NCBI GenBank assembly: GCA_965224025.1 | Contig: OZ245033.1 | Span: 1,632,001-1,696,000, forward strand | Origin: Candidatus Multivorans sp. | GTDB lineage: Bacteria > Acidobacteriota > Thermoanaerobaculia > Multivoradales > Multivoraceae | Reading direction: 5' to 3' | Length of the DNA stretch: 64,000 nt | Part shown: positions 2,224 to 54,897 of the stretch, piece after piece | Layout of the letters: each line of letters starts with the position of its first letter | Numbering within the stretch: position 1 is the first letter of the stretch | The notes under the pieces: generated by a model | The model's database searches: none | What the model was told of the DNA's origin: nothing | What the model saw: only the letters and a program-made list of their open reading frames with translations | Made by a program: the position numbers and the translations under genes

Positions 2224-2279
2224 AGGGGCTCCCTCCAGGTCCGGACAGATCCTTGCCCGGCAGACCGGAAGCGTACCGC

Positions 2280-2352
2280 GTTCCATCCGAGCGCCCGATG
2301 ACGGGCGCTCGGACTGGTTCACGGGTGGCGCAAGCTTGCGCCACCCGGGTTC
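2280..2352. repeat. Double-hairpin interspersed repeat, copy A
   Basis: Minus strand GAACCCGGGTGGCGC-AAGCTT-GCGCCACCCG-TGAACCAG-TCCGAGCGCCCG-TCAT-CGGGCGCTCGGA-TGGAAC; related copies at 10247, 61162, 63705. Confidence 0.85.
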
Positions 2353-2425
2353 GCCCTGAAGGATCGTCGCCCGTTCAGGCAACGGCCAGCGCCGCGACAT
2401 ATGCACGATCGTCTATAGTCAGGCT

Positions 2426-3259
2426 ATGATCGACCTCCGCTCGCTAGTCACACTGGTTTCCATCGTCGCGCTGTCCTCGGCGATCGCTGCTGCCGCGGCA
2501 GCCCAGACCGCGCCACCGGGCAGTCTCGTCCACTGGCAGGGCGACGAGATCACCCGCTGCCTGGTAGGCGACCGGGCGTTCGCACCCACCCATATCGACG
2601 GCCAATCAGGATGCCTGGTTCCGGTCGGCCTCACCCGAACAGACGACGTCGTGGCAGAGCGCGACCGGGACGGCCGTCGGGAGCGGCTACGCATCGGCCT
2701 CGCCGAGTACCCCTACTCGGTTCAGCGACTGACAATCAAGGACCGAAGCCGCGTCGATCTTTCGCCCGAAAACCTGGCGCGCGTGGCGCGCGAAAACGCC
2801 CTGATCGGCAGGCTCTGGGCACGGCAGGGCGAACCGCGGTCTTCCCTGCCTCTGGGAGCGCCGCTCGAAGAGATGCTGGATGGCGGCCGCTTCGGCGCCA
2901 AACGCATCATCAACGGCGAACCTCGCTCGCCGCACACCGGCGCCGACTACGCGGTGCCCCAGGGCACACCCGTGCTGGCGGTCGACGATGCCGTGGTCGC
3001 GCTGACCGGCGAGTTCTTCTTCTCCGGCAACGCCGTCTTTCTCGACCACGGCAACGGTCTGATCAGCATGTACTTCCACCTCCACGAGGTGTTCGTCGAG
3101 CAGGGCGAAGAGGTTTCGCGCGGCCGCCTGATCGGCACCGTCGGCTCAACCGGCCGTTCGACCGGACCGCACCTGCACTTCGGCATCCGTTGGCAGGGCG
3201 CGCGAGTCGACCCGGCGCTGCTGCTCGGCGCGCCAGCAGCGATTCAGACGGCGCGCTAG
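2426..3259 (+). CDS. M23 family metallopeptidase
   Basis: Signal peptide; HTGAD (HxxxD) and STGPHLHF (HxH) motifs. Confidence 0.92.
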   Translation: MIDLRSLVTLVSIVALSSAIAAAAAAQTAPPGSLVHWQGDEITRCLVGDRAFAPTHIDGQSGCLVPVGLTRTDDVVAERDRDGRRERLRIGLAEYPYSVQRLTIKDRSRVDLSPENLARVARENALIGRLWARQGEPRSSLPLGAPLEEMLDGGRFGAKRIINGEPRSPHTGADYAVPQGTPVLAVDDAVVALTGEFFFSGNAVFLDHGNGLISMYFHLHEVFVEQGEEVSRGRLIGTVGSTGRSTGPHLHFGIRWQGARVDPALLLGAPAAIQTAR

Positions 3260-40382: not shown

Positions 40383-43300
40383 ATGACCGACGACACGACG
40401 ACTTCCAGGCCCCTCGACTTCATCCGCGAGCGGGTGCGCGCCGATGTCGCGGCCGGCAAGCACGGCGGCAGCGTCGTCACCCGATTCCCTCCGGAGCCGA
40501 ACGGCTACCTCCACATCGGCCACGCGAAGGCGATCTGCCTCGACTTCGGCGTCGCCGAGGAGCACGGCGGCCACTGCAACCTGCGCTTCGACGACACGAA
40601 CCCGACCGCGGAGGACACCGAGTACGTCGAGGCGATCGAGCGCGACGTGCACTGGCTCGGTTTCGACTGGGGCGGCGAGACGCTCTACGCGTCGGACTAC
40701 TTCGACCAGCTCTACGAATGGGCGGTCGAGCTGATCCGCAAGGGCAAGGCCTACGTCTGCAGCCTGAGTCCGGAGGAGGCGCGCGCCTACCGCGGGCGCT
40801 GGAACGAGCCGGGCCGCGAGAGCCCCGACCGCAACCGCTCCGTGGAAGAGAATCTCGACCTGTTCGAACGGATGAAGAACGGCGAGTTCGCGAACGGAGC
40901 GCACACGTTGCGCGCCAAGATCGACATGTCGTCGTCGAACATGAACCTGCGCGACCCGGTGCTCTACCGGATCCTCCACGCCGAGCACCACCGCACGGGC
41001 TCCAGGTGGTGCATCTACCCCATGTACGACTGGGCCCACGGCCAGTCCGACGCGATCGAGGGCGTGACCCACTCGCTTTGCACCCTCGAGTTCGAGGACC
41101 ACCGGCCTCTCTACGACTGGTTCCTCGACCACATCGACGGCATCCACCTGCCGCAGCAGATCGAGTTCGCCCGCCTCAACCTGACTTACGCCCTGACCTC
41201 GAAGCGCAAGCTCAGGCGGCTGATCGACGAAGGTCTCGTCGACGGCTGGGACGATCCGCGCATGCCCACGCTGACGGCGCTACGCCGCCGAGGCTGCCCG
41301 CCCGAAGCGATCCGCGACCTCTGCGCGCGCGTCGGCCTGACCAAGAATGACTCGGTCGTCGACCTGAGCCAGCTCGAGTTCGCGATCCGCAACGAACTGA
41401 ACCGGACCGCGCCGCGGGTCATGGGCGTGCTTCGCCCGCTCAAGGTGGTGATCGAGAACTACCCCGATGACCACGAAGAGGAACTCGAGGCGATCAACAA
41501 CCCGGAGGATGCTTCCGCCGGGACACGCAAGGTGCCGTTCTCCAAGGTCCTCTACATCGAACGGGACGACTTCCGCCGCGACCCGCCGCGGAAGTTCTTC
41601 CGCCTCGCGCCGGGGCGAGAGGTGCGGCTCCGCTACGCCTATTTCATCACCTGCACCGAGGCGATCGAGGACGAAGAGGGGAACGTCGTCGAACTCCGCT
41701 GCACCTACGATCCGGCGACGCGCGGCGGCGACGCGCCGGACGGCCGCAAGGTCAAGGCCACCCTGCACTGGGTGTCTGCGGCGCACGCGATCCCGGCCGA
41801 GGTCCGGCTCTACGACCGGCTGTTCAACCACCCGAATCCGGCCGGCGCACCCGGCGAGATCGACGATCACCTGAACCTCGGTTCGCTTGAAGTGCTGAAC
41901 GACTGCCGGCTGGAGCCGAGCCTAGCCGGCGCCGAGCCGGGTGACCGGGTCCAGTTCGAGCGGCTCGGCTACTTCTGTGTCGACCCAGACAGTACGCCCG
42001 GCGCGCCGGTGTTCAACCGGACTGTGACCCTTCGGGATACCTGGGCGAAGATCGAGCGGGCACAGAAGGCGGCCGGGAAGCGCTGGGCTTCGGTGCGACC
42101 CGACACCGCCGCCAACACCCGCTCGGCGCTACAGCATGCGGGAGCGGCACTGGATCGTCTCCGACAAACGGTGAACCAGTACGACGCCGAGCGAATCGAA
42201 CGGCTGCTCGCCGCACGTCTCGGCCTCGGCGAACTGAAACAGCGACTGAAGCGGCAACGTGACAAAGAAACCGCAGCGCTTCACGACCTCGCCCAAAGCA
42301 GGTCCGAACTGGACGAGCTTCAACGGGTCGGCGCCACCGAGCCACGTCGGGAACTCGACTTCTTCCAGATACTCAACGTTCACCACGCAGAGGAGGCCCA
42401 TTCCAATTTTCTCGGCTGGCTCCTCGATCCCGAGGGAACCCACGAAACAGGCAGCTCCTTCCTCAGGGAGTTCCTGACCAAGACCGCGAAAACAGCGGAA
42501 GAGCGGCGCATGTCAGGAATCGCCCTCTCGAGAGTGCAGGCAGCGGACTGGTCGGATACCGAAGTCAGGCGGGAATGGAAGTACATTGACATCCTGCTCT
42601 TGAACGACCGGGAGAAGGTCGTTTGTGCCATCGAGAACAAGGTCCGGGCGCCCGAAGGCATAGGCCAAGAAGGCGTGAGTCAACTCACCCGCTACCGACG
42701 ACTGCTGGAAGCGGAGTTCCCGAACCATGAGCGGCACTTCGTGTTCCTGACGCCGTCTGGCAAGGAATCAGGTATCAAAGACGAGCGGCGCTTCTGGATA
42801 CCCGAGGGCTACGCCGCCATTCATCAAACGCTAAAGGACCTGCTGGAACAGAGCGATGCGTTGGAGGGGTCCGACGCCCTCTACGCCCTGGCTCAGTACG
42901 AAACAACCCTGCGGAGGAACATCGTGACATCGGAAAGCGAAGTCGCCAAGCTGGCGAGGCGTATCTACCTGGAGCACCGAACGGCCCTGGAACTTGCCTT
43001 TCGACACAAGCCGGACTACAAGGCCGAACTCGGCCAGATGCTCAAGGAGGCCATCGCTGAGACCGATGGCTGGCTACTAGACTGGTCTACGCCCGCGTAC
43101 GTCCGGTTTCGGCCTACGAGTTGGGACCGCTTCGACTCTCAGCGTTCCGGCACGGGCTGGCCACCCTCCAAGACCTTGATCCTGTTCGAGGTCAACTGCG
43201 GAGAAGATCCGCTCAATTCGAAGCTACAGCTATGCTTAGGGTCGGGCGAGACCGCACCGATCCGTGAACAGGTCTACGCCCGCGCCCGACAGGACCCTTC

Positions 43301-43508
43301 TGTGTTCAAAGCCGGCGGTCGTCTGCAGGACTACACACACCTGCTCAAGCCTGTGGACCTTCTGGAGGAGGAAGACTTCGGCCCCGCTTGGGACAGCGGC
43401 GCAACCGCAGCCAGACTTCGCGATCGGTTGAGCCGTTTCTTCGAGGAACAGTTCCCGGCGATCGACGAACTCATCAACAGGTGCTTCGAGAACGCCGACT
43501 CCCGCTGA
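40383..43508 (+). CDS. glnS: Glutamine--tRNA ligase fused in frame to a PD-(D/E)XK (PDDEXK_4-like) nuclease
   Basis: [38 protein letters not shown] (to ~42070); helical linker; [31 protein letters not shown]. Confidence 0.9.
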
Positions 43509-43849
43509 GAGCCGGATAGAGCCACGGCCGGAACGGCACGTCGCACGCTCCTCCGGCAGCGTTCGGGGAACGCGTGGAGCCACCCCTGAATGCGTAATGG
43601 ATCCTGGAGTGGCGCCATGCCCAGTCCCGGGAGGTTCGTGAAAATCAGGTCTCCTCTCAAGGAACTCACCGCCGTTGAGCTGCGAACGACGAAAGCGGCG
43701 CTCGCCGTAGTACTCGGCTTGGGGCAGGACGCCGTTTCGGGTGCCTCACCGATCAGGGCCAGGGCTCGGGAGTTGGAGATGCACGAAGGGCACCCATGGC
43801 ACCCCTTCGTGCGCCGGCGACTCCCGGTCCGGCCTACAATCAAGGAGAC

Positions 43850-44392
43850 ATGGCTGACCGCCGATCATCCGATCAGAGCCGCGCGACCGCGCGACTGCTG
43901 AGCCAGTACGACAACCTCCTGGACACCGTCCTCAAGGCCTGCAAGGCACACTACGGGAGCCGACTGGCCGCCCTCGCCGTCTACGGATCCGTCGGCCGCG
44001 CCACGCCCAGGGCCGACTCCGACATAGACCTCCTCCTAGTCGCGGACGATCTGCCGGATGGTCGGATCGCTCGGGTCGAGGAGTTCCGCGCCATAGAGGA
44101 CCGGCTGCGGCCGTTGTTCGACACGGCCGCCGACCTCGGAATCCACACCCGTCTGGCGCCGATCTTCAAGACGCCCCGGGAACTCCGCCGCGGAACCCCG
44201 CTCCTGCTCGACATGACCGAGGACGCGCGCATCCTCCATGACCCCGATGGCTGCCTGGCCGACACCCTCGATCGCCTGCGCGACCGCCTCCGTGAACTGG
44301 GCTCGAAGCGGGTCTGGAAGGGCGACGAGTGGTACTGGGACCTGAAGCCCGACTACAAGCCCGGCGATGTCTTTGAACTGTTCCCAAGATGA
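43850..44392 (+). CDS. Minimal nucleotidyltransferase (MNT) antitoxin
   Basis: YGSVGR...DSDIDLL; AAGGAG SD and TACAAT upstream. Confidence 0.88.
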   Translation: MADRRSSDQSRATARLLSQYDNLLDTVLKACKAHYGSRLAALAVYGSVGRATPRADSDIDLLLVADDLPDGRIARVEEFRAIEDRLRPLFDTAADLGIHTRLAPIFKTPRELRRGTPLLLDMTEDARILHDPDGCLADTLDRLRDRLRELGSKRVWKGDEWYWDLKPDYKPGDVFELFPR

Positions 44393-44805
44393 CGACGAAC
44401 GGCGCTCTGGCGAGAAGCTACCTGGCCAAGGCGCAAGTGCGGCTCCGCGCCCTGGCTGTGTTCGTGGCCGAAGAGGCGCATTCCGACGTCATCCGGGAGG
44501 CGCAGGAACTCGTCGAGCTCGCGCTCAAGGGAATGCTCCGGCAGGCAGGCGTGGAGCCGCCCCACTGGCACGACGTAGGCAGCCTGTTCCGGGAACTGGC
44601 CGACCGCTTCGCCGGCCTCGACTCGGCCGACCTCGACCGAATCGCCGCCATCTCCTCCTGGCTGCACGCCGAACGGGAGCCGTCCTTCTACGGGGAACCG
44701 GGCCTGACCCCCACCGAGCGCTACACGGAAGCCGACGCGAAGCGGGCGTTCGACGACGCGTCGTGGGTTGTCTCAGTCGCTGCTCTCGTGATTCCTGCGG
44801 AGTAG
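44389..44805 (+). CDS. HEPN domain protein
   Basis: ATGA overlap with MNT; AQELVELALKG, PPHWHDV, REPSFYG. Confidence 0.85.
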   Translation: MTTNGALARSYLAKAQVRLRALAVFVAEEAHSDVIREAQELVELALKGMLRQAGVEPPHWHDVGSLFRELADRFAGLDSADLDRIAAISSWLHAEREPSFYGEPGLTPTERYTEADAKRAFDDASWVVSVAALVIPAE

Positions 44806-44811
44806 GATCCG

Positions 44812-47800
44812 TCAGATACTTGGTCCACTCCGTCGCACCCGGGTGACGAGGTCCACCACATGGGTGGCTGGCCTCGATCCGTAATCCTCCGGGTGACAGG
44901 TCAGAACGACGATCTGGATCCTCGCCGCCGCTTCCTCCAGGAGTTCGCGAAGCCACGCCATCCGGCTCTCGTCGGTCTGCGTCAACTGATCGTCCAGAAC
45001 GACGAAGGCGCCCAACGCTTCGGCGATGGAGATCCGAAGGAGTATGGCGATCTGCTCTCTGGCGCCGACCGAGAGCTCGCTGAACGTCCGCTCTGCGCCG
45101 GCGAAGCGGATGCCCCCGGCGTCCAGTTCCGGGCCGATCGCCAAGTCGCCGTACCGGCCGCCGGTCAGCTCCGAGATGCGTGAACTCACTGGCCCTACCA
45201 ATGCCTTGCCGAGATGCGCGGTCTCCTGCTTCTCCACTTCCCGCAGCGTCTCGACCAGGAGCTTCCATGCCTCGTACTCGACCTCGAGGCCTCCCTCCCG
45301 CTCCCGGATCGCCTCGACCCGCTCTTGTGCTTGAAGCGCCTGCTCCTCGGCGTAGGCGCCGCCGACCTGTTCCAGGGCGCCCCGGCGCTTCAGTAACTCC
45401 TCCGTGATCCGCAAGACCTTCGCCTCGGCCTCTCCGGCGGCACGCTCCAGTTCTCCGGTGTCGGTCGGCGCCGCTCCCGCGAGGTCCTCCTCCAGTCCCT
45501 CGAGGATCTCCCGGCACCGCTTCCTCTCCCCGCGAGCGGCCTCCACGTCCTCCCGCTCCAGCGCATCCTCGTGGACCCTGATTTCGCTCTCCAGCCCTGC
45601 CAGCTCCTCGCGCTGCGAGGCAAGGCCCCGGCCTACGTCGTCCCGTTGGCTCCGGACGCAGGCGGCCTCCTGCTCGATCTTCTCCAGGTTCTCCCTGGCC
45701 TCGTCGACCTGATCGGCCGCCTCGGAGCGCACGGCCTCGAGCCGGCTTTCCGCCGCCTCGTTCTGACGCGCAAGCTCCGCACGCCGCGCCGCCGCGCCCG
45801 CAAGCAGGCCCCGCCAGTCCGAATCGGCCCGGAGCAGCTCGTTCCGCTTGGCCTCCTGCTCCTGCCGGTCGCGGACCAGGTCGTTTGCGTCGTGCTCCAC
45901 CTTCGACTCAAGGCCACGACTCCGTTCCCGAAGCTCGGAAACGCGGCGCTCCACGCTCTCAGTGTCATCGCCAATCTCCGACTCTTCTCGCGGCTGCGCA
46001 TCCAGATTGCGGATGTGCTCCTCCACCGAAGCGCCCTCGCCAAGCGCCTCGGCGAGGGCGGACCGGCTGCGGTCCAGGTCACCGCGCGCCAGAGCCTCGC
46101 CACGCTCCAGCATCTCCAGACGCTCCGCTCGTATCCGTGCCTCATCGGCGCTCCGATCCCCTTGGTCGGCGTCGTCGCGCAGGGACTCGGCCTGGCGATG
46201 GAGCTTCTCGAGCTCCCGACCCGTAGCGACGCCTGCCCGCTCCAGGAGCGGCCGCCGGACAGTCTCGAGCTCCCGCTCGGCGGCGTCGGCGGCCGTTGCG
46301 AGTTCCTTGCCGCCGCCGCGCACATGCACCGCGCCAACGCCCGGGATGTCGACTCGCAGTTCGCGCTTAGCCTCGAAGTCCGTGTGCCGCCCCTCTCCGA
46401 CCCGCACGGCCTCCGTTTCGCTGTCCGCGCGCACCTCGGCCTTCGCTCCGGCCTGAAGCTCCAGATCGACGACCAGGCCCACGGCGAGCTTCTCCCGAGC
46501 AATCTGTCGATCGGTCTCCAGCTTCTTCAGACGCTCGATCTCCTCGCTGCTCGGCGCTCGCAGATCTGCAGCCGCCTTTCGCAGTGACACCGCCTCTTCC
46601 TCGGCGGCCGCCGCCGCGCTCGCATGCTTCCGGGCCTCCTCGTGCTCGCTAGCGCGCCGTTTCACGTCTTCGCAAGCTGTCAGGTAGCGGGCGCCCAGGC
46701 GCTCGACCTGAAGATCCCGCAATCGGCTTCGATCGGACCCGACCTCCTGCTCAGCCTCCTCAACAAGGGCTCGCGCCTCGGCCAGATTCCGCTCCTTCTC
46801 CTCGATCCGGCCGCCCAGCTCCCCGACCTGGCGGTCGAGTTCGGCGAACCGCTCGGCGTCCTCGATCTGGCGGTCGAACTCCTCCTGTTCCCTGCCGACC
46901 TTGAGCCGAGCATTCTCAGCCTCCTGCTCCCGCAGGCGCCGCTCCTGCTCGCCGCCGCCGGCCTCGACCTCGCGCACTCGTTCGCGCGCCTCCGCGAACT
47001 GCCGGGCGAGACCTTCACCGGCGCGCTCCAGCTCGGCACGCTCGCTCGACAGTTCAGCGACCCGCTTGCGCGCCACCTCGGCGGCTGCGAGCTTCTCGTC
47101 GCGCGTTCGAATCAGCGTCTCGATCCGCGTCGCCTCCTTGTCAGCAGAACGAAACGCTTCCTCGGCCTTCTCCAGTTCGCCGCGTCGGGCGTCGGCTGCC
47201 CGCGCTTCCTCGAGCTTCCGCCGGACCGCATCCCGGACGGCCTCCGCCTCGGTCTGCTCCTGCTGCAGTTCGTTCACTCGCCTGCGAACGCCCTCGCTCT
47301 CCTCCTGCTGCGATCGGACTTCCTGCCGCCGTTCCTCAGCGGCACGGCGTTCCTCTTTCAATCGCGTCCACGGCGAGTCCCGGCCGCTTCGCCGCCGGCC
47401 TGTGGCGGTGTACGCCAGGTCGACCTTCACCTGAACCGCGTCGAGCAGCTTCTTCAGTCGAGGATCCTCGGCCAGACCCTCGAGCGCGCGCATGAGCTGC
47501 TCACGACCGGACTCCGTCGGATCCTCAGCCAGGCTGCCCTCGAGGATGGCGCCCACTTCGTCCTGCCGGCCCAGCAGCGCGGTGGTGATCAGGGTGCTGG
47601 GCATCCCGCGCGGCCCGCCCTTGCCGCCCGGAGGCGTGGCGCCCCAGCCGAGCATCTCGTTCAGTTTGCCGTCGACTTCGCGGCCCCGGCTGTCCGTGCT
47701 GAAGTCGCGGCCGTCCCGGGAGAACGCCAGGTAACTCTTGCCGCCGCCGACCTTGAAGGTCTTCCGCACCTGCCACACCTTCTGAGCTTCCTGCTCAAAG

Positions 47801-48018
47801 GTCAGGGCGACCGACGGCGGCCCTTCGCTGTGCCAGTCATCGAGGACTCTGGCGGCGCTCGAGCCGGACTGAAGCAGAAGCACCGCCCGCACCGCTTCCG
47901 CGAGACTCGACTTGCCGAGTTCGTTCGGCCCGTGGAGCACGTTCAGGCCGGGTTCGAGATCGACCGAAGCCTCGGCGATGCCCGCGCAGTCGACGACCTC
48001 CAGACGGCGGATCCACAC
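44812..48018 (-). CDS. SMC/Rad50-like (YhaN-type) coiled-coil ABC ATPase
   Basis: Walker A GPNELGKS, long coiled coil, signature LSVGAREQ, Walker B VVLDD, LTCH; GTG 4 nt after the phosphoesterase stop; no CxxC hook seen. Confidence 0.88.
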   Translation of the reverse strand: MWIRRLEVVDCAGIAEASVDLEPGLNVLHGPNELGKSSLAEAVRAVLLLQSGSSAARVLDDWHSEGPPSVALTFEQEAQKVWQVRKTFKVGGGKSYLAFSRDGRDFSTDSRGREVDGKLNEMLGWGATPPGGKGGPRGMPSTLITTALLGRQDEVGAILEGSLAEDPTESGREQLMRALEGLAEDPRLKKLLDAVQVKVDLAYTATGRRRSGRDSPWTRLKEERRAAEERRQEVRSQQEESEGVRRRVNELQQEQTEAEAVRDAVRRKLEEARAADARRGELEKAEEAFRSADKEATRIETLIRTRDEKLAAAEVARKRVAELSSERAELERAGEGLARQFAEARERVREVEAGGGEQERRLREQEAENARLKVGREQEEFDRQIEDAERFAELDRQVGELGGRIEEKERNLAEARALVEEAEQEVGSDRSRLRDLQVERLGARYLTACEDVKRRASEHEEARKHASAAAAAEEEAVSLRKAAADLRAPSSEEIERLKKLETDRQIAREKLAVGLVVDLELQAGAKAEVRADSETEAVRVGEGRHTDFEAKRELRVDIPGVGAVHVRGGGKELATAADAAERELETVRRPLLERAGVATGRELEKLHRQAESLRDDADQGDRSADEARIRAERLEMLERGEALARGDLDRSRSALAEALGEGASVEEHIRNLDAQPREESEIGDDTESVERRVSELRERSRGLESKVEHDANDLVRDRQEQEAKRNELLRADSDWRGLLAGAAARRAELARQNEAAESRLEAVRSEAADQVDEARENLEKIEQEAACVRSQRDDVGRGLASQREELAGLESEIRVHEDALEREDVEAARGERKRCREILEGLEEDLAGAAPTDTGELERAAGEAEAKVLRITEELLKRRGALEQVGGAYAEEQALQAQERVEAIREREGGLEVEYEAWKLLVETLREVEKQETAHLGKALVGPVSSRISELTGGRYGDLAIGPELDAGGIRFAGAERTFSELSVGAREQIAILLRISIAEALGAFVVLDDQLTQTDESRMAWLRELLEEAAARIQIVVLTCHPEDYGSRPATHVVDLVTRVRRSGPSI

Positions 48019-48022
48019 GGCG

Positions 48023-49153
48023 TCAGGCCTGTTCCCGCACGAGCCGGTAGAGATGATGAAGCGCCCGCTCGACGACCTCAGGACGCGCCTGGGCGTGTTC
48101 CCGCAGGCGTTCGACGGCCGTCTCGAGCACCGGCATCTCGCTTCCGAAGTCGATCGTTGCGGCCGACGCGAGGCGGAACCCCCTTCGCTCGACATCGAGC
48201 ACGCCGACCTTCGGCGTCGAGGCCATCGAACCGCCCAACTCGGTGAGGATGCGTTCCGCCTCGTCGTACTCCGCCATCGGAAGCTCCATCTCCAACACGA
48301 GCCTGAGCACGGTCTTGCGCAGGTTCGTCTCCTGCTTCAGGCGGCGGAGTTCGTCCATCGATCGACACGTCTCCTCTCGCCAGTTCCAGCTTCCGACGGG
48401 TTCGCACAGCACCCAAGCGCGCCGGCGGCGGTCGAGCGGGAAGAACACGATCGCCACATGACCGGCATTCCGCTCGCCGAAGGTCGTGGCCTCCGGCGTG
48501 CCGGGGTACACGGTCGGCGCAGCCGCATCGGGTTCGACCTCCCGGAACCCGTGGGTATCGCCGAGAGCCAGGTAGTCGAAGCCCCGTTCGACCGCACTCC
48601 CGCGGGCGATCGGGAAGTTCGTCTGGTGACCCTTGATGTCGAAGGTCTGACCGTGGACCATGCCGACGCGAATCCGCTCGTCCCCGGGAGCGCGGCGGGG
48701 CAGCGAAGCGACGAGATCCGTCTGACCGGCCCGCGATTCGCAGGGGCTCGCGTAGAGAACGGCGCCGTCGCCGAGCGGCAGCTCCCATCCACTCCGGTCC
48801 ACGACGTGAACGTAGTCCGGCAGCCCCTGTCGAAACGAGTGGGCCGCGGCGTACACGGAACCCCGCCCGATCGGATCGTGGTTGCCGGGCAGAAGGATCA
48901 CCGGCCGCCGCCATTCCCGCCGGCGCTGGAACTCGTGAAGGAGTCCTTTCCACCACAGTTCTTTCGGCGCCGGCTCTTCGAACAAGTCGCCTGCGCACAA
49001 CACGGCGTCGACGTCGGAACCCGCCGCCAGATCGAGAGTCCGGCGGACGGCCTCGAGCCGAGCCCGGGTCAAGCGCTCCTCCTGGCCCTTCTCGAACTGC
49101 GGGAATCGGCGGCCCAGATGCCAGTCGGCGGTGTGCAGCAGTTTGAGCGCCAC
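48023..49153 (-). CDS. Mre11/SbcD-like metallophosphoesterase nuclease
   Basis: HTADWHLG, AGDLF, PGNHD, HG, ALGDTH, YPGTPE; GTG 49153 after GAGGAG. Confidence 0.9.
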   Translation of the reverse strand: MALKLLHTADWHLGRRFPQFEKGQEERLTRARLEAVRRTLDLAAGSDVDAVLCAGDLFEEPAPKELWWKGLLHEFQRRREWRRPVILLPGNHDPIGRGSVYAAAHSFRQGLPDYVHVVDRSGWELPLGDGAVLYASPCESRAGQTDLVASLPRRAPGDERIRVGMVHGQTFDIKGHQTNFPIARGSAVERGFDYLALGDTHGFREVEPDAAAPTVYPGTPEATTFGERNAGHVAIVFFPLDRRRRAWVLCEPVGSWNWREETCRSMDELRRLKQETNLRKTVLRLVLEMELPMAEYDEAERILTELGGSMASTPKVGVLDVERRGFRLASAATIDFGSEMPVLETAVERLREHAQARPEVVERALHHLYRLVREQA

Positions 49154-49235
49154 GTCGTTCTCCTCCAGAGGGTGGACCGTTTCCCGGCCGCGCGTCATTC
49201 GGCAGTCTCCCGCGCGGGACTCGGCTCGCAGGGAA

Positions 49236-52217
49236 TCATCCGATGACGAACTCCGCGGTGAGCAGCCGCTCCGTCTCGGGCTTGCGGTAGCGACGGCCGT
49301 GGGCGTGGTCCCGCCACCGACGGTACGTCTCGTCGTCGCCCGTCGCCATAGCCTCGATCTGCGAGTCGAGCGACTCGATCTTCTGCTCGATGGCCCGCGT
49401 CTGGGACTCTGCCCTCGCACGGTTCTCCGCGCCGATGGCACTGTCACGGCGACGTTCGGCGGCCGTGAGACGAGTGCTCTCGCGGCGCCGGTCGCGCCGC
49501 AACACGAGGAGACGATCGGCCAGATACTGATCCAGTTGATCCATCGCCGCCTCGAAGTTCGCCTGGTCGCCCCCGGCCCCGCCGGCCTGGTCCAGGAAGA
49601 GCTCCTCGTCGACCACTTCGTCGAGGTGATCCGCAGTCACGCCAAGCGGCGGTCTGAACTCGCCGACGTCCACACAGGGCTGGCGCAGCAGATCGATGGC
49701 GGCATCCGCCGGGCGCAGCACTTCCGCGTCCTCGAACACTGCGGTGACGCACAGCCGGTCCTCGCGCTCGAAGCGGGCGTTCGTCACTCGAGTCAGGGCC
49801 AATCGACCGCGTTCGCCTCGGCGACGACGCAGCGCTTCGGGAGCGCCGGCTGCGAGATCGAAGCGGACGCGGAAGGCGCCGTTCCCCGCAATCCGTGCTT
49901 CCTCCACCGCGGCGCCGATCAGGGGGTGGGCGAGATGAAGTGACTCGGTGTCGCCCAGGTCGCGGGCCGGTCCCAGGGCAACCGAGACGCCGCCGGCCAG
50001 CGGACCGGGCAACGACCGCGAAGCCCGAACGTGGATCACGCGGCGCCCTGCCCGCTCCGCGGCGCCCCAGGGGACGCCCCTGGCATCCAGGTACGCCGTC
50101 ACCACCCGCTCGAGTTCAGCGTCGAGCGCTGCGAGGGTCGCCGGAAGTTCCGACTCGATGTTGCGGAAGACCTCCCGCACGGACTCGTCGAACTGCCTTT
50201 GGATCAGCGACGTCGTGCGCTCGCGCACCTGGTCCAACCGCTGCCTGCGCTCCTCCAACTCATCCCGGAGCCGGCGCAACTCGTCCTCGACCTCCCGCAC
50301 CGACCTGGAACGATCCCAGATGCGCCGCACCTGCGCCTCGAAATCCGGCCCCAGAGCCGAGGCGAGTTCGTCGGACGAGTCGGAGCGCGGGGTCTGCAGG
50401 ACAACGTCCGACATGTCGAGCACCTTGCCGAACAGATCGAGCTTCGTGCTGAGAATCTCGAACGTGAGCCGCTGGGCCTCGTTGTCCTTCGCCAGAAAGC
50501 TGATCACCGTGACATCGCGCTTCTGCCCGTAGCGGTGACAGCGGCCGATCCTCTGTTCGATGCGCTGCGGGTTCCAGGGCAGGTCGTAGTTCACCAACGT
50601 GTCGCAGAACTGGAGGTTCAACCCCTTGGCACCGGCCTCCGAAGAGATGAAGACCCTGGAGCGGGTGCGGAACTCGTGGACCAACGCCAGGCGAACCGCA
50701 ACGGCCGGGCTGGGTCGCAGGCGCGGCTCGATGTCGCACTCCACCTCCTCGCGCCACGCGCCGAGCGCCTCCGCCGCACGCGCCGAGTCGTTGACGCCCC
50801 GAAACAGCGTGATGTCGCCCCGAGAGAGCTCCGTCTGCTCGAGCAGCAGATCGCGCAGGTAGTCCTGCGTCGTCAACGATTCGGTGAACACGACGACTTT
50901 CTGCCGACCCTCAGGGCGTTCCAGGACCAGGCGCACCGCCTCCACCAGGCTCTCCGCCTTGCTGTCTCGCGGCAGGCGCCGGGCCCGGCGCACGAAATCC
51001 TGGACCCGCGCCCGTTCCGCCCGTACGCCAGCCGCGTCGACAGCACGTTCATCGGCGGGGTCCTCACCGGCGGTGGGCGGGGGGTCGGGGCCAACCTCCG
51101 TCTCTTCTTCCTCCTCCAGGTCGCCGGCGAACAACTCCGCCGCCGCGGCGATCGCCGCCCCACCACCCCGGAGCATCCCGCGCAGTCGCTGGGAGACCCG
51201 CTCCAGGCTGTCTGCCAGCGCCGCGGTCGAGGACGCCATGCGCCGATGGAAGCCGAGCAGCAACAACTGCCGCGAACTGCCGCTGAACGCGTGCAGCGTC
51301 GGTTCCAGCAGGTAGGCGGTCACGTCGTCGTAGAGCGAGCGCTCTTCGGCGCTCATCGCGTACTCGAACAACTGGGCCCGCCGACCGACGAACGGCTTGT
51401 CGAGGAACTCCTGAGCCTGTCGGCGCAGCGTCCGCTGGACGACGACGCCAAGCCGCCTCTGGAGTTCTTCGGCCTGCTCGGCGACGACCTGCCGCCCCGC
51501 GTTGTCCGCGCAGAAGACGTCCTCGAAGACTGGTTTCGAGCCCAGCAGCGTGCCGGTGCGGTCGATGTACTGCACCAGCCCCCAGAGTTCCGCCAGTGAG
51601 TTCTGGATCGGCGTGGCGGTCAGGAGAAGCACCGGGGCGACGCCCATGATCTGTCGCAAGCGGTGCGCGACCTGCGCGTAGCGGCTGTCCTCGTCGTACG
51701 AACCGTAACGGTCGAACCGCCGGTGAATGGCGGCGAAGACCTCGTGAGCCTCGTCGATCAGGTAGAGATCGAACGGCGGCGCATTCCGCAGCCGTTCGAA
51801 GCCCCTGGCCCCGCCCGCGTACTCCCGGCCCACCAGGAACACGCCCGGCGCATCGAGATCGATCGCCGGATCCGTAGCCTCGACCGCCTCGATCCCGAAC
51901 AGGGTGTACAACTCGCTCTGCCACTGGCCAAGCAACGGGCGCGGCAGGACAATGAGGATTCTCTCGGCGCCCTCCGCCATCAACTGGGCGATGACGAGGC
52001 CGGCCTCGATCGTCTTGCCCAGGCCCACCTCGTCCGCAAGGATGCACCCTCCTTCCGGAATGCGGCGCAACGCGAACATGACCGCGTCGATCTGGTGCGG
52101 GTTCGGGTCGATCCGCGCACGTCGCTGCGAGGCGACCTGCCGCCTGCGCTCGCTGGCCCGGCGGGCGCGAACAAGTTCCTCCGCGTAGTAGCGGCGATGG
52201 ATCGGGTGTGCCGGCAC
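49236..52217 (-). CDS. SNF2/RapA-like helicase (intact)
   Basis: DPNPHQ, ADEVGLGKT, DEAH, LLTATPIQN, GAKGLNLQF, NYDLPWNPQRIEQRIGRCHRYGQ; start GTG 52217 (ORF open to 52277). Confidence 0.92.
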   Translation of the reverse strand: MPAHPIHRRYYAEELVRARRASERRRQVASQRRARIDPNPHQIDAVMFALRRIPEGGCILADEVGLGKTIEAGLVIAQLMAEGAERILIVLPRPLLGQWQSELYTLFGIEAVEATDPAIDLDAPGVFLVGREYAGGARGFERLRNAPPFDLYLIDEAHEVFAAIHRRFDRYGSYDEDSRYAQVAHRLRQIMGVAPVLLLTATPIQNSLAELWGLVQYIDRTGTLLGSKPVFEDVFCADNAGRQVVAEQAEELQRRLGVVVQRTLRRQAQEFLDKPFVGRRAQLFEYAMSAEERSLYDDVTAYLLEPTLHAFSGSSRQLLLLGFHRRMASSTAALADSLERVSQRLRGMLRGGGAAIAAAAELFAGDLEEEEETEVGPDPPPTAGEDPADERAVDAAGVRAERARVQDFVRRARRLPRDSKAESLVEAVRLVLERPEGRQKVVVFTESLTTQDYLRDLLLEQTELSRGDITLFRGVNDSARAAEALGAWREEVECDIEPRLRPSPAVAVRLALVHEFRTRSRVFISSEAGAKGLNLQFCDTLVNYDLPWNPQRIEQRIGRCHRYGQKRDVTVISFLAKDNEAQRLTFEILSTKLDLFGKVLDMSDVVLQTPRSDSSDELASALGPDFEAQVRRIWDRSRSVREVEDELRRLRDELEERRQRLDQVRERTTSLIQRQFDESVREVFRNIESELPATLAALDAELERVVTAYLDARGVPWGAAERAGRRVIHVRASRSLPGPLAGGVSVALGPARDLGDTESLHLAHPLIGAAVEEARIAGNGAFRVRFDLAAGAPEALRRRRGERGRLALTRVTNARFEREDRLCVTAVFEDAEVLRPADAAIDLLRQPCVDVGEFRPPLGVTADHLDEVVDEELFLDQAGGAGGDQANFEAAMDQLDQYLADRLLVLRRDRRRESTRLTAAERRRDSAIGAENRARAESQTRAIEQKIESLDSQIEAMATGDDETYRRWRDHAHGRRYRKPETERLLTAEFVIG

Positions 52218-52266
52218 TTTGGGGCGGTCAACGTCGACAGCAACGCCAACGGGCAGGCGATTGTAG

Positions 52267-52315
52267 CGGCGCCTCAACGACGGCGCCTCAACGACGGCAC
52301 TACAACGACGGCAAC
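52267..52315. repeat. 14-bp tandem repeat (~3.5 units)
   Basis: CGGCGCCTCAACGA x2, CGGCACTACAACGA, CGGCAAC. Confidence 0.85.
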
Positions 52316-52459: not shown

Positions 52460-52822
52460 GTGGGGTGCTGCCGTACTCTTCGGGAACTCGTCGAAGGTCA
52501 GAACTTCTCTCCAGTGTTCATCGCCGCTGAGTTGCGCACCACGAAGGCAGAGATCGCCGGCACACTTGGTTTGGGGCGTGACGCCCTCTCGCGTGCCTCA
52601 CGGATCAGGGCCCGAAAGACCCAGATCCGCCTCCGCCAGATGCTGGAGATTCTGAACCGCGTCGAAGCCGAGACTGGATCGCCGCTTGCGGCCTACGCCT
52701 GGTTCCGCGCCGAGCGGCTGCCGGGCTTTGGCGGTGCCACCGCGGATCTGCTGCTGCGAGAAGGCAAGGCCGACCACGTCCATGCCTATCTCCACAGGGT
52801 GGCGGCAGGCGGCTATGCATAG
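52460..52822 (+). CDS. Xre/MbcA/ParS-like antitoxin
   Basis: HTH-like N-part; AYAWFRAERLPGFGGATA..L...G...V..YL..V..GGYA; upstream of a RES gene. Confidence 0.8.
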   Translation: MGCCRTLRELVEGQNFSPVFIAAELRTTKAEIAGTLGLGRDALSRASRIRARKTQIRLRQMLEILNRVEAETGSPLAAYAWFRAERLPGFGGATADLLLREGKADHVHAYLHRVAAGGYA

Positions 52823-52837
52823 GGCACTTGCCTGCCG

Positions 52838-52966
52838 ATGCGGTTCCGAAGGGTCGTCTATCGGGCCCACAATCCTCAATGGTCCTGGACGCCGCTCTCA
52901 GGTGAAGGCGCTCGCCGCCATGGTGGGCGTTTCAACCGTCGCGGTGTACCGGCGCTCTACAGCTAG
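52838..52966 (+). pseudogene. RES-domain toxin, truncated after 42 codons
   Basis: MRFRRVVYRAHNPQWSWTPLSGEGARRHGGRFNRRGVPALYS*. Confidence 0.8.
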
Positions 52967-53391: not shown

Positions 53392-54897
53392 TCAGATGCT
53401 AGCAACTCGGTCGAGCCCCTCGAACCGCTTCTGCAACCTCTTCATCCGCTTGCCCGAAATGCCGCCGAGCGCCTCGATGGCGCGGCGGATGCGGGCCCGC
53501 ACGAGATCAGGGCCAAGAATCTCCATCGACTGGAACAACGGCAGCGAGGCCGTCTCGCCCGACATGGCGACGTAGAAGGGTCGGGTCAGGTCGCGCAGGC
53601 TGAGCCCCAGGGCCTCCGACAGGCGCCGGAATCGGCCTTGGATGACGTCGGCAGTGAAGGTCTGCTCACGCTCCAGCACCCAAAGCACGCACTGCAACGC
53701 TTCGGCAACCTGGGCCTCTTCGAGACCTTTGACGGCCAGCTTCTCCCGATCGACCAGCGGCGCGTCGACGAACAGGAAGTTCGTGAGCCGGCCCCAGTCG
53801 CCCAGGGTCTCGAGCCGCGGCTGGGCCAGGGCGGCGATCGCCGCGAGCCGCTCCTCCCCCATCGACCACTCGCGCACGAGCGCCGCCAAGCCCTCCGCGT
53901 CGTAGTCCTCGCGCAGGTAGCGGGCGTTCAGCCAGCGCAGCTTGTCGAGGTCGAAGACGGGGCCGCCGAGCGAGATGTCTTCCAAGGTGAAGCCGTCCGC
54001 GAGCCGGTCGAAACCGAATTTCTCCTCGCCCTCCGAGCGGCTCGACACCATCAGGCCAAGGAAGTTGAGCAGCGCCTGGGGCAGGAAGCCCGCGTCCCGA
54101 AACCAGGTGATCGAGGTCGGGTTGCGCCGCTTGGAGAGCTTGGAACGGTTCGCGTCGTTGTTACGCAACAGGGGCAGGTGGCAGAACGTCGGCGGCTCGT
54201 AGCCGAGCGCCTCGTAGAGCCGCAGGTGCTTCGGCAGGGAGTTGATCCACTCTTCGCCGCGGATCACGTGGCTGATCGCCATTGCGTGATCGTCGACCAC
54301 GCACGCGAGGTGGTAGGTCGGGTGCCCGTCGGCCTTCAGGATCACCTGGTCGTCGATCAGTTCCCACTCGCGCCGGATCTCGCCGCGCAACAGGTCGTGC
54401 ATCACGCATTCGCCCTCGGTGGGCATCCCGATTCGCACGACGTGCTCTTCGCCGGCGGCGGCTCTCCGCTCCGCCTCTTCTGGCGAGAGGCTCCGGCAGC
54501 GCCGGTCGTAGCCGGGGAAGCGCTGCTGCGCGCGGTTCTCGCGCCGCATCTCGTCCAGCCGCTCCCGGGTGCAGAAGCAGCGGTAGGCGCTGCCCTCGGC
54601 AAGCAGCCGGTCGACCTCGGCGCGGTACGACTCCAGGCGTTCGCTCTGGCGGTATGGGCCCTCGTCCCAGTTCAGACCCAGCCAGCGCAGGGCGTCGAGG
54701 ATCGCGGCCTCCGACGCACGGGTCGAGCGGGCGCGGTCCGTGTCCTCGATCCGCAGCACGAAGGCGCCGCCGCAGCTGCGCGCGAAGGCCAGGTTGACCA
54801 GCGCCTGGTAGGCGGTGCCGACGTGCGGGTCGCCGGTCGGCGACGGCGCTACGCGCACCCGTACTGGAGCACTGGCCCCGAGTCCCGAATCACTCAT
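53392..54897 (-). CDS. gltX: Glutamate--tRNA ligase
   Basis: APSPTGDPHVGT, LRIEDTD, GPYRQSER, HVIRGEEW, KLSKR. Confidence 0.96.
   Translation of the reverse strand: MSDSGLGASAPVRVRVAPSPTGDPHVGTAYQALVNLAFARSCGGAFVLRIEDTDRARSTRASEAAILDALRWLGLNWDEGPYRQSERLESYRAEVDRLLAEGSAYRCFCTRERLDEMRRENRAQQRFPGYDRRCRSLSPEEAERRAAAGEEHVVRIGMPTEGECVMHDLLRGEIRREWELIDDQVILKADGHPTYHLACVVDDHAMAISHVIRGEEWINSLPKHLRLYEALGYEPPTFCHLPLLRNNDANRSKLSKRRNPTSITWFRDAGFLPQALLNFLGLMVSSRSEGEEKFGFDRLADGFTLEDISLGGPVFDLDKLRWLNARYLREDYDAEGLAALVREWSMGEERLAAIAALAQPRLETLGDWGRLTNFLFVDAPLVDREKLAVKGLEEAQVAEALQCVLWVLEREQTFTADVIQGRFRRLSEALGLSLRDLTRPFYVAMSGETASLPLFQSMEILGPDLVRARIRRAIEALGGISGKRMKRLQKRFEGLDRVASI

Follow-up and report, generated by a model that had tools for sequence, protein, structure and literature searches.

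A rare cassette of SNF2 ATPase, Mre11-like nuclease and hookless Rad50/YhaN-like ATPase genes in a Candidatus Multivorans genome

The window analysed here, a stretch of 64,000 nucleotides, carries at 44812-52217 on its minus strand three co-directional genes that encode, in 5′ to 3′ order, an SNF2 ATPase, an Mre11/SbcD-like nuclease and a Rad50/YhaN-like ATPase, with the catalytic motifs intact in all three (Table 1). This 7.4 kb cassette had been singled out in an earlier, sequence-only reading as three co-directional genes with intact motifs and gaps of 82 and 4 nt. The minus-strand open reading frames, together with motifs that stay invariant in homologue alignments, bear out the first part of that description. 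The 4-nt gap stands, with the GTG start of the ATPase lying 4 nt past the nuclease stop; the 82-nt gap holds only if the nuclease starts at its alternative GTG, 49156, and the stop codon is counted. The SNF2 frame is open over 49236..52277, as far as a TTG at 52277, and by comparison with homologues the protein likely starts at GTG 52217, directly before a conserved HPIHRRY N-terminus. A promoter and terminator scan of the locus gave no signal above shuffles.

Table 1. Features of the cassette and of the hotspot in which it lies, in order along the window.
Feature	Position	Strand	Evidence
glnS (GlnRS, about residues 1-570) with a PD-(D/E)XK (PDDEXK_4) segment in frame; left border of the hotspot	40383..43508	+	Pfam
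MNT (nucleotidyltransferase)/HEPN toxin-antitoxin pair; neighbour of the cassette	43796..44805	+	Pfam NTP_transf_2, HEPN
Hookless Rad50/YhaN-like ABC ATPase, 1068 aa, GTG start	44812..48018	-	Pfam, PDB, Atlas, alignment, AF2
Mre11/SbcD-like binuclear metallophosphoesterase, 392 aa from ATG	48023..49201	-	Pfam, TIGR00619, PDB
SNF2-family ATPase, RapA/DrmD-like, 993 aa	49236..52217	-	Pfam, NCBIfam, PDB, AF2, Foldseek
Xre/ParS-type antitoxin (52460-52822) and truncated RES toxin remnant (52838-52963)	52460..52963	+	Pfam Xre_MbcA_ParS_C, RES
gltX (GluRS); right border of the hotspot, convergent with glnS	53392..54897	-	Pfam tRNA-synt_1c, Anticodon_2

The SNF2 protein consists of two RecA lobes, an acidic variable linker and a C-terminal module of long helices and a beta domain, and it matches the Pfam families SNF2-rel_dom (82 bits) and Helicase_C (53 bits). 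All 18 aligned homologues share motifs I (DEVGLGKT), II (DEAH), III (TATP) and VI (QRIGRCHRYGQ) without change. Its closest relatives in the PADLOC and NCBIfam libraries are the defence helicases DrmD, BrxH, HmaA and DpdE; the PADLOC DrmD match (E 8e-122) spans the helicase core and reaches into the C-terminus, and the NCBIfam models DISARM_DrmD_b and DrmD score 408 and 209 bits, both below their cut-offs of 950 and 610. Among solved structures RapA is the best relative by PDB sequence search (111 bits), with the NCBIfam RapA model reaching 133 bits against a cut-off of 576. Residues 625-1013 of the 1013-aa open frame were modelled with AF2 at a pLDDT of 85.5, and a Foldseek search with the C-terminal module returned the C-terminal part of RapA as the sole significant match (E 3.6e-7, TM 0.36 on the query). 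A wide VIA-align search with the models of this module and of the ATPase centre found helical hairpins only (Z of at most 11.4) and is uninformative for beta domains.

The nuclease matches Pfam Metallophos at 48 bits and the TIGR00619 sbcd model at 60.4 bits, under the cut-off of 77.65, and a PDB sequence search retrieves T. maritima Mre11 and E. coli SbcD at 44-60 bits. Its metal ligands D26, H28, D72, N107, H108, H183, D215 and H217, which we take to belong to Mre11 motifs I-V, are invariant in all 22 sequences compared. No family of PADLOC-DB v2.0.0 matches this protein.

The ATPase scores 31.7 bits with Pfam SMC_N (cut-off 40), 44 bits with Rad50 heads in the PDB and 16-33 bits with the NCBIfam Rad50 models, whose cut-offs are 700-1087. 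Invariant in the ATPase alignment are GPNELGKS at Walker A, the Q-loop glutamine, the LSVGxREQ signature and the D-loop; Walker B reads LDDQ, with Asp-Asp rather than Asp-Glu, and the H-loop reads TC(H/R)P, the window copy having His. The sequence-only reading had described a very long coiled coil and no CxxC hook, and both features are confirmed: an AF2 model of residues 400-720 (pLDDT 90.8) has a long helical arm broken by a six-strand beta domain, and CxxC is absent from 19 of 19 homologues. This central domain, which contains the invariant P490, occupies the place of the zinc hook and appears to be soluble rather than hydrophobic; Foldseek found no match to the ATPase centre at E of 0.001 or less. 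The nearest Atlas clusters carry AAA_23/AAA_27, and the window ATPase itself has no AAA_27 or AAA_23 match at E 0.01.

The cassette lies in a hotspot between two convergent aminoacyl-tRNA synthetase genes. Throughout the genus, cassettes are always found between glnS and gltX, where toxin-antitoxin (TA) modules also come and go, and gltX is found in 41 of the 42 genomes. In 20 further congeners the gap between the two genes is empty in 6 and holds TA modules only in 11, and in one genome (G034) the hotspot holds a nuclease-ATPase pair that lacks SNF2, with an ATPase matching AAA_27 and AAA_23. The extension of the glnS frame into PDDEXK_4 is unique to the window genome, since the GlnRS of congeners aligns only to residues 1-560/618, and no ATG was seen at the junction. 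Of the TA modules described earlier on both flanks, the right one is decayed. As for the left one, four congeners (L117-L120) have the MNT/HEPN pair but no triad, and several triad loci lack it; the pair is a hotspot neighbour outside the cassette. On the right, an Xre/ParS antitoxin is followed by a toxin decayed to 42 residues (Pfam RES, 39 bits); intact RES toxins of 165 aa are present in congeners, that of L134 scoring 88 bits. This remnant module, too, is a neighbour outside the cassette.

Conservation of gene order ties the three genes to one another. Linkage was counted in the clade of nucleases with at least 44% identity, at loci with enough flank. SNF2 lies directly upstream of the nuclease at 64 of 65 such loci (18/18 genome loci, 9/9 congeners and 37/38 metagenome loci that have 400 nt or more of upstream sequence), and the ATPase lies downstream at 58 of 62 (17/18, 9/9 and 32/35, respectively). 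The spacing from nuclease to ATPase is at most 10 nt in 21 of 25 loci, and the SNF2 and nuclease genes overlap in 14 of 25. Among distant nuclease-ATPase pairs (25-39% identity, at least 3 kb upstream), none of 18 has an adjacent SNF2 gene. An adjacent SNF2 gene thus marks one nuclease clade only, and the SNF2 linkage, on whose conservation the sequence-only reading had staked its case, is kept. Given these counts, the cassette is not a chance juxtaposition of three genes.

Structure prediction points to physical contact as well. For the C-terminal domain (CTD) of SNF2 with the nuclease, the median ipSAE is 0.66 (runs 0.72, 0.51 and 0.66) and that of the best control 0.00; a value of 0.66 is reached by 116 of 157 solved complexes versus 2 of 215 mismatched pairs. 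Between runs, 64% or more of the contacts agree, with partner pLDDT of at least 71. Invariant or near-invariant residues line the predicted interface on both sides, namely R46, R54, D57, P255 and D257 of the nuclease and E267, F270, H369, R372 and P376 of the SNF2 CTD. Among the matches to SNF2 and nuclease profile searches, no PDB entry holds both SNF2 and Mre11 chains. The prediction favours an SNF2 protein that binds the nuclease by its C-terminal domain, and so lends weight to the earlier suggestion that the translocase works with the nuclease. We consider it likely that the composition of the cassette and its physical coupling are as described here.

The three-gene set recurs in several bacterial phyla as a cassette that is rare, mobile and hitherto undescribed. 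Ten of the 41 readable genomes of the genus carry it, and in the phylum the counts are 8 of 401 genomes and 3 of 227 genera. It is therefore not core, as the earlier reading required of a defence system. That reading had also called for a search for a separate housekeeping sbcCD; of 42 genomes in the genus, 41 do have a core nuclease-ATPase pair elsewhere, and the pair of the window genome is of the type with a hydrophobic central domain. Genomes whose GluRS shares only 30-52% identity have copies that match the SNF2 protein and nuclease at 46-71% identity. In the SNF2 tree, copies from five phyla interleave, and Acidobacteriota rows fall in at least four places among Pseudomonadota, Verrucomicrobiota, Rokubacteria and Myxococcota. 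In this quick tree the copies of the genus group as a single clade (97 SH-aLRT), so that, within the genus, vertical descent with losses explains the pattern as well as repeated gain. One congener (G016) has a GluRS 94% identical and SNF2, nuclease and ATPase proteins only 77, 70 and 53% identical, which suggested replacement by transfer within the genus; this idea was dropped on account of the single clade.

Another reading is that the cassette serves a mobile element, processing the element's own or competing DNA, for example in exclusion of rival plasmids or in handling transfer intermediates, and not in protecting the host from phages. Two loci (L046 and L182) adjoin genes for a TrwC relaxase and the coupling protein TrwB, L046 also has a VirB11-type ATPase, and an IS66 fragment and a PcfJ-like gene occur at L176 and L168; the hotspot location and the mixing across phyla fit the same idea. 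However, searches of 72,556 plasmid records (and of 50,697 phage records and viral contigs) brought up no close copy, and most loci, including all ten of the genus, have no conjugation or integration genes in the stretch read. Such a selfish function, which overlaps with anti-plasmid defence and is hard to tell apart from it, appears to us very improbable.

The genes around the cassette do not single it out as part of a defence island. PADLOC neighbours scoring at least 200 bits, a rule chosen after the data had been seen and with look-alikes among transporters, kinases and polymerases set aside, flank 4 of 15 genome loci and 7 of 23 metagenome loci, and the resulting 11 of 38 triad loci is no excess over the 4 of 13 random windows of the window genome. 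The scan covered 107 flank ORFs at the genome loci and 86 at the metagenome loci (25 chosen, 2 without a flank ORF), as called by a home-made caller based on codon usage, and the baseline comprised 109 ORFs of random 14-kb windows from the genome itself (18 drawn, of which the first 13 within the size limit were used). The intended comparator, 14 pairs lacking SNF2 (19 chosen, 5 dropped for the residue limit), is defence-rich in 6 of 14 and is therefore no neutral control. Individual cassettes abut Avs2 (862 bits) and Gabija (664 and 677 bits) at two loci, many lie amid ordinary metabolic genes (L037, L043, L051, L155, L157, L184 and L187), and at L048 Ku and LigD lie 2-6 kb away. No methyltransferase or other evident discriminator of self from non-self was found at the cassette. 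The proposal of a defence machine is thus supported in part, in that the triad is not core, keeps its SNF2 gene and is uncatalogued, and it gains no support from any excess of defence genes nearby.

One neighbour does recur. A giant AAA_11/AAA_12 helicase-MTES_1575 endonuclease of the PDC-S37/Hhe-like type directly adjoins 6 of the 38 triad loci, in each case upstream (L045, L046, L162, L173, L180 and L182), and none of the 13 random windows. The triad might accordingly be the nuclease arm of a larger system that comprises, in one subclade, this helicase-nuclease and a MotB/OmpA-like/unknown pair, the window form being reduced or differently triggered. At L182 and L046 a same-strand ORF of an unknown family (549 aa; 227 aa at the contig end in L046) and a 245-aa ORF precede the helicase-nuclease, and the 245-aa ORF of L046 matches OmpA and, weakly, ZorB. 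The same type of gene also flanks 2 of 14 pairs lacking SNF2. Against this, 32 of 38 triad loci, including every copy of the genus, have no helicase-nuclease, its orientation varies (divergent in L045), and co-location in islands explains the pattern equally well; Hhe, the nearest model family, is moreover presumably a single-gene system. We therefore regard a larger system as improbable.

A comparison of the cassette with known systems helps to place it. No single system of PADLOC-DB v2.0.0 (2023 library) is matched by all components, the SNF2 protein matching helicases of several systems, and no description of the triad was found in the libraries and literature searched; the ABC-ATPase classification of Krishnan et al. 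2020 may list the neighbourhood. The earlier statement that no named system has this triad holds within that scope, with a nuclease that has no PADLOC model and an SNF2 protein under the NCBIfam DrmD cut-offs. The closest characterised families are SbcE (YhaN) and SbcF (YhaO) of Bacillus subtilis, hookless proteins with a proline-conserving central domain that PMC2811018 links to double-strand-break repair and competence. They share with the cassette a nuclease gene followed by that of a CxxC-less, SMC-like ATPase, whose coiled-coil arms flank a proline-bearing central domain (PMC2811018). They differ in having no SNF2 partner, and the central beta domain of the cassette ATPase looks soluble, not hydrophobic; the cassette ATPase has no AAA_27/AAA_23 match at E 0.01, although its nearest Atlas clusters carry these domains, and the cassette nuclease is only 25-39% identical to its SNF2-less relatives. 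With SbcCD and Mre11-Rad50 the cassette shares phosphoesterase ligands, ABC head motifs, an antiparallel coiled coil and a nuclease-ATPase operon. In contrast to these, its ATPase has no zinc hook and an Asp-Asp Walker B, its proteins fall under every NCBIfam cut-off for SbcD, SbcC, Mre11 and Rad50, it is accessory and not core, and its nuclease, by prediction, carries a docked SNF2 motor.

The likeness to defence systems is confined to parts. Nothing in the libraries matches the SNF2 protein better than DrmD of DISARM, yet the scores are far under the curated cut-offs; DrmA, DrmB, DrmC and DrmMI are absent from the locus neighbours, and the four MZB/DUF1998 matches in the genome all lie at least 240 kb from the cassette. 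RapA (HepA) matches the C-terminal module, but the short N-terminus of the cassette SNF2 protein leaves no room for the RapA N-terminal domain, and the gene, scoring below the RapA cut-off, sits in an operon with a nuclease. Like Lamassu (LmuB) and Wadjet (JetC), the accessory cassette combines an SMC/Rad50-like coiled-coil ATPase with a nuclease. Its ATPase, however, matches those proteins only at the level of the P-loop (LmuB 36 bits over residues 17-53, JetC 12 bits), its effector is an Mre11-type phosphoesterase and not LmuA or JetD, and it has an SNF2 motor and no kleisin-like subunit. Lamassu is reported to sense DNA ends (PMC12663957).

Together, the three genes likely encode one accessory, horizontally mobile DNA-processing machine, which probably cuts foreign or broken DNA. 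The Mre11-like nuclease and the hookless ATPase would assemble into a complex of the SbcCD type, with DNA ends, hairpins or blocked termini as its targets. The RapA/DrmD-like SNF2 protein would act as a double-strand DNA translocase that its conserved C-terminal helical module holds on the nuclease, where it would most likely either feed DNA to the nuclease or strip off blocking proteins such as end-protecting proteins, polymerases or nucleoid proteins. The outcome would be the degradation of linear or replicating foreign DNA without a methylation mark.

Defence against phages or plasmids is the leading reading of this activity, and we put it at about an even chance. It is weakened by the strong conservation of the SNF2 and nuclease sequences, which is unlike that of many arms-race genes, and by the repair function of the nearest characterised relatives, SbcE/SbcF and SbcCD (PMC2811018). 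These same observations, conservation across phyla included, favour a specialised accessory DNA-repair module, in which an SbcE/SbcF-like complex would be joined by an SNF2 protein that clears RNA polymerase, nucleoid proteins or protein adducts at breaks and stalled forks. The RapA-like fold of the SNF2 C-terminal module, the many loci among housekeeping genes, the Ku and LigD genes near one cassette and defence neighbours no commoner than baseline are all consistent with such a module. RapA removes RNA polymerase from DNA, and in eukaryotes Fun30/SMARCAD1 or INO80 help MRX in a functionally similar way. Nearly every genome of the genus, however, already has a core nuclease-ATPase pair, to which the sparsely distributed triad would be an addition; the triad shares its hotspot with TA modules, interleaves across phyla in the tree and has conjugation genes beside two loci, and its nearest library SNF2 relatives are defence helicases. 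A repair module seems to us less likely than defence.

A more specific form of the defence reading, which we advance tentatively, is that the cassette encodes a methylation-independent immune nuclease of a new class, in which an SNF2 motor of the chromatin-remodeller type on a hookless Mre11-Rad50 complex destroys protein-capped or protein-coated phage or plasmid DNA, and that it is one of a wider modular set of accessory Mre11/Rad50-like cores with swappable third subunits, SNF2 here and PDC-S06-type ATPases in relatives. If true, this immune nuclease would parallel, in prokaryotes, the MRX resection that remodellers assist.

Break processing by Mre11-Rad50/SbcCD is universal, and SNF2 motors are known chiefly for chromatin remodelling and for their part in the poorly understood defence systems DISARM, BREX, Zorya and Dpd. 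An operon that apparently couples the two physically would offer a tractable bacterial model of how a translocase may aid an end-processing nuclease past protein obstacles, and its strict synteny, its small size and the predicted interface make the cassette directly testable by cloning. DrmD-like helicases would gain a concrete partner and, with it, a role that can be tested, and the candidates for anti-phage or anti-plasmid immunity would be joined by an SMC-like cassette that does not depend on DNA modification.

Three long minus-strand ORFs occupy 44812-52277 of the window; their high G+C at third codon positions is typical of real genes in this genome, which has 68% G+C. The sequence-only reading had described three co-directional genes with intact catalytic motifs and a hookless ATPase, and this is borne out by Pfam assignments, invariant motifs and a search for CxxC that found it in 0/19 ATPase homologues. 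Across 18 SNF2 homologues, motifs I (DEVGLGKT), II (DEAH), III (TATP) and VI (QRIGRCHRYGQ) are invariant. The start proposed in that reading, GTG 52217, is likely the SNF2 start, because the homologues begin a few residues ahead of a conserved HPIHRRY. Just upstream, in the intergenic region from which SNF2 and the Xre gene diverge, lies a short tandem duplication. The nuclease residues D26, H28, D72, N107, H108, H183, D215 and H217 are invariant in 22/22 sequences, as are the ATPase head motifs GPNELGKS, the Q-loop Q, LSVGxREQ and the D-loop; the ATPase has LDDQ at Walker B in place of hhhhDE, and TC(H/R)P at the H-loop.

Features of the triad, its surroundings and related loci
Feature	Location	Strand	Description
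SNF2 ATPase, first gene	window 49236..52217	-	Pfam SNF2-rel_dom + Helicase_C
Mre11/SbcD-like phosphoesterase, second gene	window 48023..49201	-	Metallophos, 48 bits
ABC ATPase, third gene	window 44812..48018	-	1068 aa from GTG 48018, 4 nt past nuclease stop
Tandem duplication	window 52270-52305	-	GCCGTCGTTGAGGCGCC, x2
glnS, left hotspot border	window 40383..43508	+	GlnRS frame with PDDEXK_4 extension
gltX, right hotspot border	window 53392..54897	-	GluRS
Core nuclease-ATPase pair	G000:C1:3027719-3031854		window's genome, outside window
SNF2-less hotspot pair, congener G034	L121:12129-16570		Metallophos (447 aa) + AAA_27/AAA_23/SMC_N (1079 aa)
SNF2-less hotspot pair, congener G002	G002:C154 near 1752-2873		Metallophos + AAA_27/AAA_23/SMC_N
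Genes upstream of triad	L182:101-7029; L046:2-6021		three same-strand genes
PDC-S06 candidates, full length	L200:13787-16597; L219:12232-14670		585, 560 bits; Pfam AAA_13 in L200
DSP-PTPase	L166:14801-15349; L168:14206-14754		'Swiss Army Knife' / polymorphic-toxin phosphatase; Pfam PTP-SAK, Tc-R-P

The best library matches of the SNF2 protein are defence helicases (PADLOC DrmD, E 8e-122, followed by BrxH, HmaA and DpdE); against NCBIfam DrmD_b it scores 408 bits, with a cut-off of 950. RapA is its best solved relative (111 bits in a PDB sequence search). An AlphaFold2 model of residues 625-1013 (pLDDT 85.5) combines a helix of 74 residues with a beta domain, a long hairpin of helices and one last strand. 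Foldseek gives it significant structural matches only in RapA, in the C-terminal part (E 3.6e-7 to 2.5e-5; query TM 0.30-0.36). The nuclease scores 60 bits against TIGR00619 (sbcd), under the cut-off of 77.65, and among solved structures it is closest to T. maritima Mre11 and E. coli SbcD. Rad50 heads are the best solved relatives of the ATPase, which a language-model atlas places among AAA_23/AAA_27 clusters. The AlphaFold2 model of its residues 400-720 (pLDDT 90.8) shows a helical arm broken at the invariant P490, then a six-strand beta domain and further helices. The triad ATPase shares its logic with B. subtilis SbcE (YhaN), which is described as lacking CxxC and having a unique central domain in which a proline is conserved, and which is reported to act in double-strand-break repair and competence (PMC2811018). 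The triad differs from SbcE/SbcF in its dedicated SNF2 motor, and we class the cassette as an SbcE/SbcF-type nuclease complex that acquired this motor. PADLOC-DB 2.0.0 holds no match for the nuclease, no NCBIfam or Pfam model names the trio as such, and a literature search found no description of it; a 2020 classification of ABC ATPases, outside that search, may mention the neighbourhood. Five of the 19 ATPase homologues (L031, L037, L039, L040, L045) carry a low-complexity C-terminal tail, at about columns 1230-1340 of the ATPase alignment A2, that ends in a common short motif (a basic run, then DL..AL+.S); the window's ATPase lacks it.

The three genes form one unit. A nuclease search of 36 congeners found strong orthologues (71-92% identity) in 7, all with the full triad at the same place and in an identical gene order (7/7); two more triad carriers, G062 and G063, emerged from loci fetched from 20 further congeners. 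In a collection of one genome per species, 18 loci encode a nuclease 46-70% identical, from Gammaproteobacteria, Acidobacteriota (Vicinamibacterales, Bryobacteraceae, Terriglobales, Acidiferrales), Myxococcota, Rokubacteria and Chthoniobacterales, with SNF2 directly upstream in 18/18 and the ATPase downstream in 17/18. Two are probably decayed copies: at L054 the nuclease match ends with residue 191 and the ATPase is absent beside a full-length SNF2, and at L053 SNF2 and ATPase are in pieces. Metagenome contigs supplied 44 loci at ≥44% nuclease identity; of the 38 with ≥400 nt upstream, 37 have SNF2 next to the nuclease (exception L188), and of the 35 with ≥400 nt downstream, 32 have the ATPase next to it (exceptions L189, L191 and L169, where an unmatched 837-aa frame takes the place of the ATPase). 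Among 36 metagenome contigs with a nuclease only 25-39% identical, many show a Rad50-like partner; none of the 18 with ≥3 kb upstream has an adjacent SNF2 gene, nor do nine distant loci from genomes. With starts set by script, nuclease and ATPase lie ≤10 nt apart in 21/25 loci and SNF2 overlaps the nuclease in 14/25. The triad-type nuclease family, with 107 representatives at E ≤1e-30 (50% clustering), is small but real. A small DSP-PTPase gene directly follows the triad at two related metagenome loci.

The triad is accessory and sits in a hotspot. glnS and gltX are convergent neighbours in the genus, with a variable gap between them. In the 20 additional congeners whose gap was read, it is empty (0-222 nt) in six (L122, L125, L129, L132, L135, L136), holds MNT/HEPN only in four (L117-L120), Xre-RES with or without extras in six (L124, L127, L128, L131, L133, L134), MNT plus Xre in one (L123), a different Metallophos plus AAA_27/AAA_23 pair without SNF2 in one (L121) and the triad in two (L126, L130). 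Genus-wide, 10 of the 41 genomes of readable status carry the triad (G061 left out). Against the triad nuclease, the Metallophos proteins of the two SNF2-less hotspot pairs show 31% identity; against the core nuclease, 37%. Toxin-antitoxin modules had been claimed on both flanks, which holds only in part: the right one pairs an Xre/ParS antitoxin with a 42-residue stump of a RES toxin that is intact (165 aa) in congeners. On the left, the GlnRS frame passes the congeners' end (about residue 565) and continues in frame for ~470 residues with a PDDEXK_4 PD-(D/E)XK domain (81 bits), an extension absent from all 27 congener loci read; no ATG was seen at the junction, and the frame may be a fusion or include a separate gene that starts at GTG or TTG.

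Across the phylum, a triad-type nuclease (E ≤1e-60) occurs in 8/401 genomes and 3/227 genera. Compared with the copies of five other genomes, SNF2/nuclease identity is 68/70, 71/70, 65/59, 51/54 and 52/46%; GluRS identity to the same genomes is, in order, 52, 48 (partial), 38-40, 38 and 30%. A quick maximum-likelihood SNF2 tree of 41 sequences, which omitted rows with a stop or a best match <90% of the query (including L028, L039, L040, L047, L053, L130 and L182), unites eight genus copies in one clade (SH-aLRT 97), sister to a Vicinamibacterales copy and then to two gammaproteobacterial copies. The Acidobacteriota sequences are scattered over four or more separate positions in the tree, and a Chthoniobacterales copy lies within a tight clade with a Bryobacteraceae copy. 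Transfer between phyla thus has good support; within the genus, a single gain and later losses are compatible with the data.

Complex prediction supports docking of the SNF2 motor on the nuclease through its C-terminal module. Modelled from alignments of 22 nuclease and 18 SNF2 sequences, the pair gave a median ipSAE of 0.66 (runs 0.72, 0.51, 0.66) against 0.00 for the best of three controls, a 'supports binding' verdict; the mark is reached by 116/157 solved complexes and 2/215 mismatched pairs, counts that are rough because the analysis used its own alignments. At least 64% of contacts agree between runs, and partner pLDDT is ≥71. The predicted contacts join nuclease helix 39-63 and strands ~251-271 to module residues 263-296 and 354-376 (887-920 and 978-1000 of the 1013-aa frame), a segment that contains the conserved C-terminal motif H..RRY..P, and both faces present invariant or near-invariant residues. 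Sequence searches with the SNF2 and nuclease profiles list no PDB entry that holds both an SNF2 chain and an Mre11 chain, which makes it unlikely that the score reflects a solved complex already known to the predictor.

Defence and specialised repair are the two main readings of the cassette. The sequence-only reading had called for a check for a separate housekeeping sbcCD. The core nuclease occurs in 41/42 genomes of the genus, the sole genome without a match (G003) being a triad carrier, and therefore an SbcCD-like housekeeping pair stands apart from the triad. The core ATPase, about 970 aa long, carries a hydrophobic, membrane-like stretch midway along its coiled coil. This core pair speaks against repair and for a defence or anti-plasmid role, as do the triad's rarity, hotspot and mobility, the kinship of SNF2 with defence helicases, the relaxase and coupling-protein genes adjoining two triad loci, and a PDC-S37/Hhe-like helicase-nuclease directly adjacent to 6/38 triad loci (2/14 SNF2-less pairs, 0/13 random windows). 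Repair is favoured by the nearest characterised relatives, which act in it, by strong sequence conservation, by housekeeping genes around many triad loci and by the lack of an obvious self/non-self discriminator. Generic defence-island enrichment, also raised in that reading, is not shown: with a home-made gene caller, a PADLOC scan at ≥200 bits (a threshold set after data inspection) and look-alikes set aside (ABC transporters, Ser/Thr kinases, PolA), neighbours were found at 4/15 triad genome loci (L039, L044, L045, L050) and 7/23 metagenome loci (L158 Avs2; L162, L173, L180 PDC-S37/Hhe-like; L166; L178 Gabija; L182), against 4/13 random 14-kb windows of the window's own genome; SNF2-less relatives gave 6/14. 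That genome is itself rich in defence-type genes, its 13 random windows yielding two full-length Type IIG restriction-methylases (1112, 1103 bits), SIR2 (349 bits) and SoFic (367 bits), with L229, L231 and L240 singled out. Taken together, defence claims about half of our belief and specialised repair is a distinctly weaker candidate, the remainder being shared by a larger, composite system and a selfish role for the carrying element.

At L182 and L046, the genes upstream of the triad have a Zorya-like look: an ORF of no recognised family (549 aa in L182, truncated to 227 aa by the end of the contig in L046), a 245-aa ORF that in L046 matches OmpA, and ZorB at E 5e-11, and a PDC-S37/Hhe-like protein of 1513-1536 aa that joins an AAA_11/AAA_12 helicase to an MTES_1575 endonuclease domain. 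Downstream come the relaxase and coupling-protein genes.

In SbcCD and Mre11-Rad50, the ATPase is a dimer that closes as a clamp on DNA ends, hairpins or blocked termini and licenses nuclease activity. By analogy, the triad ATPase would do the same, its arms bearing a predicted beta domain in place of a hook, while the SNF2 motor, docked on the nuclease by its C-terminal helices in our models, would translocate on duplex DNA as SNF2 enzymes do and either draw DNA into the nuclease or clear bound proteins ahead of it; its likeness to RapA hints at removal of polymerases or other roadblocks. Such a machine would degrade DNA whose ends are free or capped by protein, for example a phage genome on entry, a rolling-circle intermediate or a linear plasmid, and would spare the circular chromosome because it has no ends. 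The PDC-S06 candidates directly 3′ of two SNF2-less nuclease-ATPase pairs suggest, more broadly, that accessory Mre11/Rad50-like cores form a family with interchangeable third genes.
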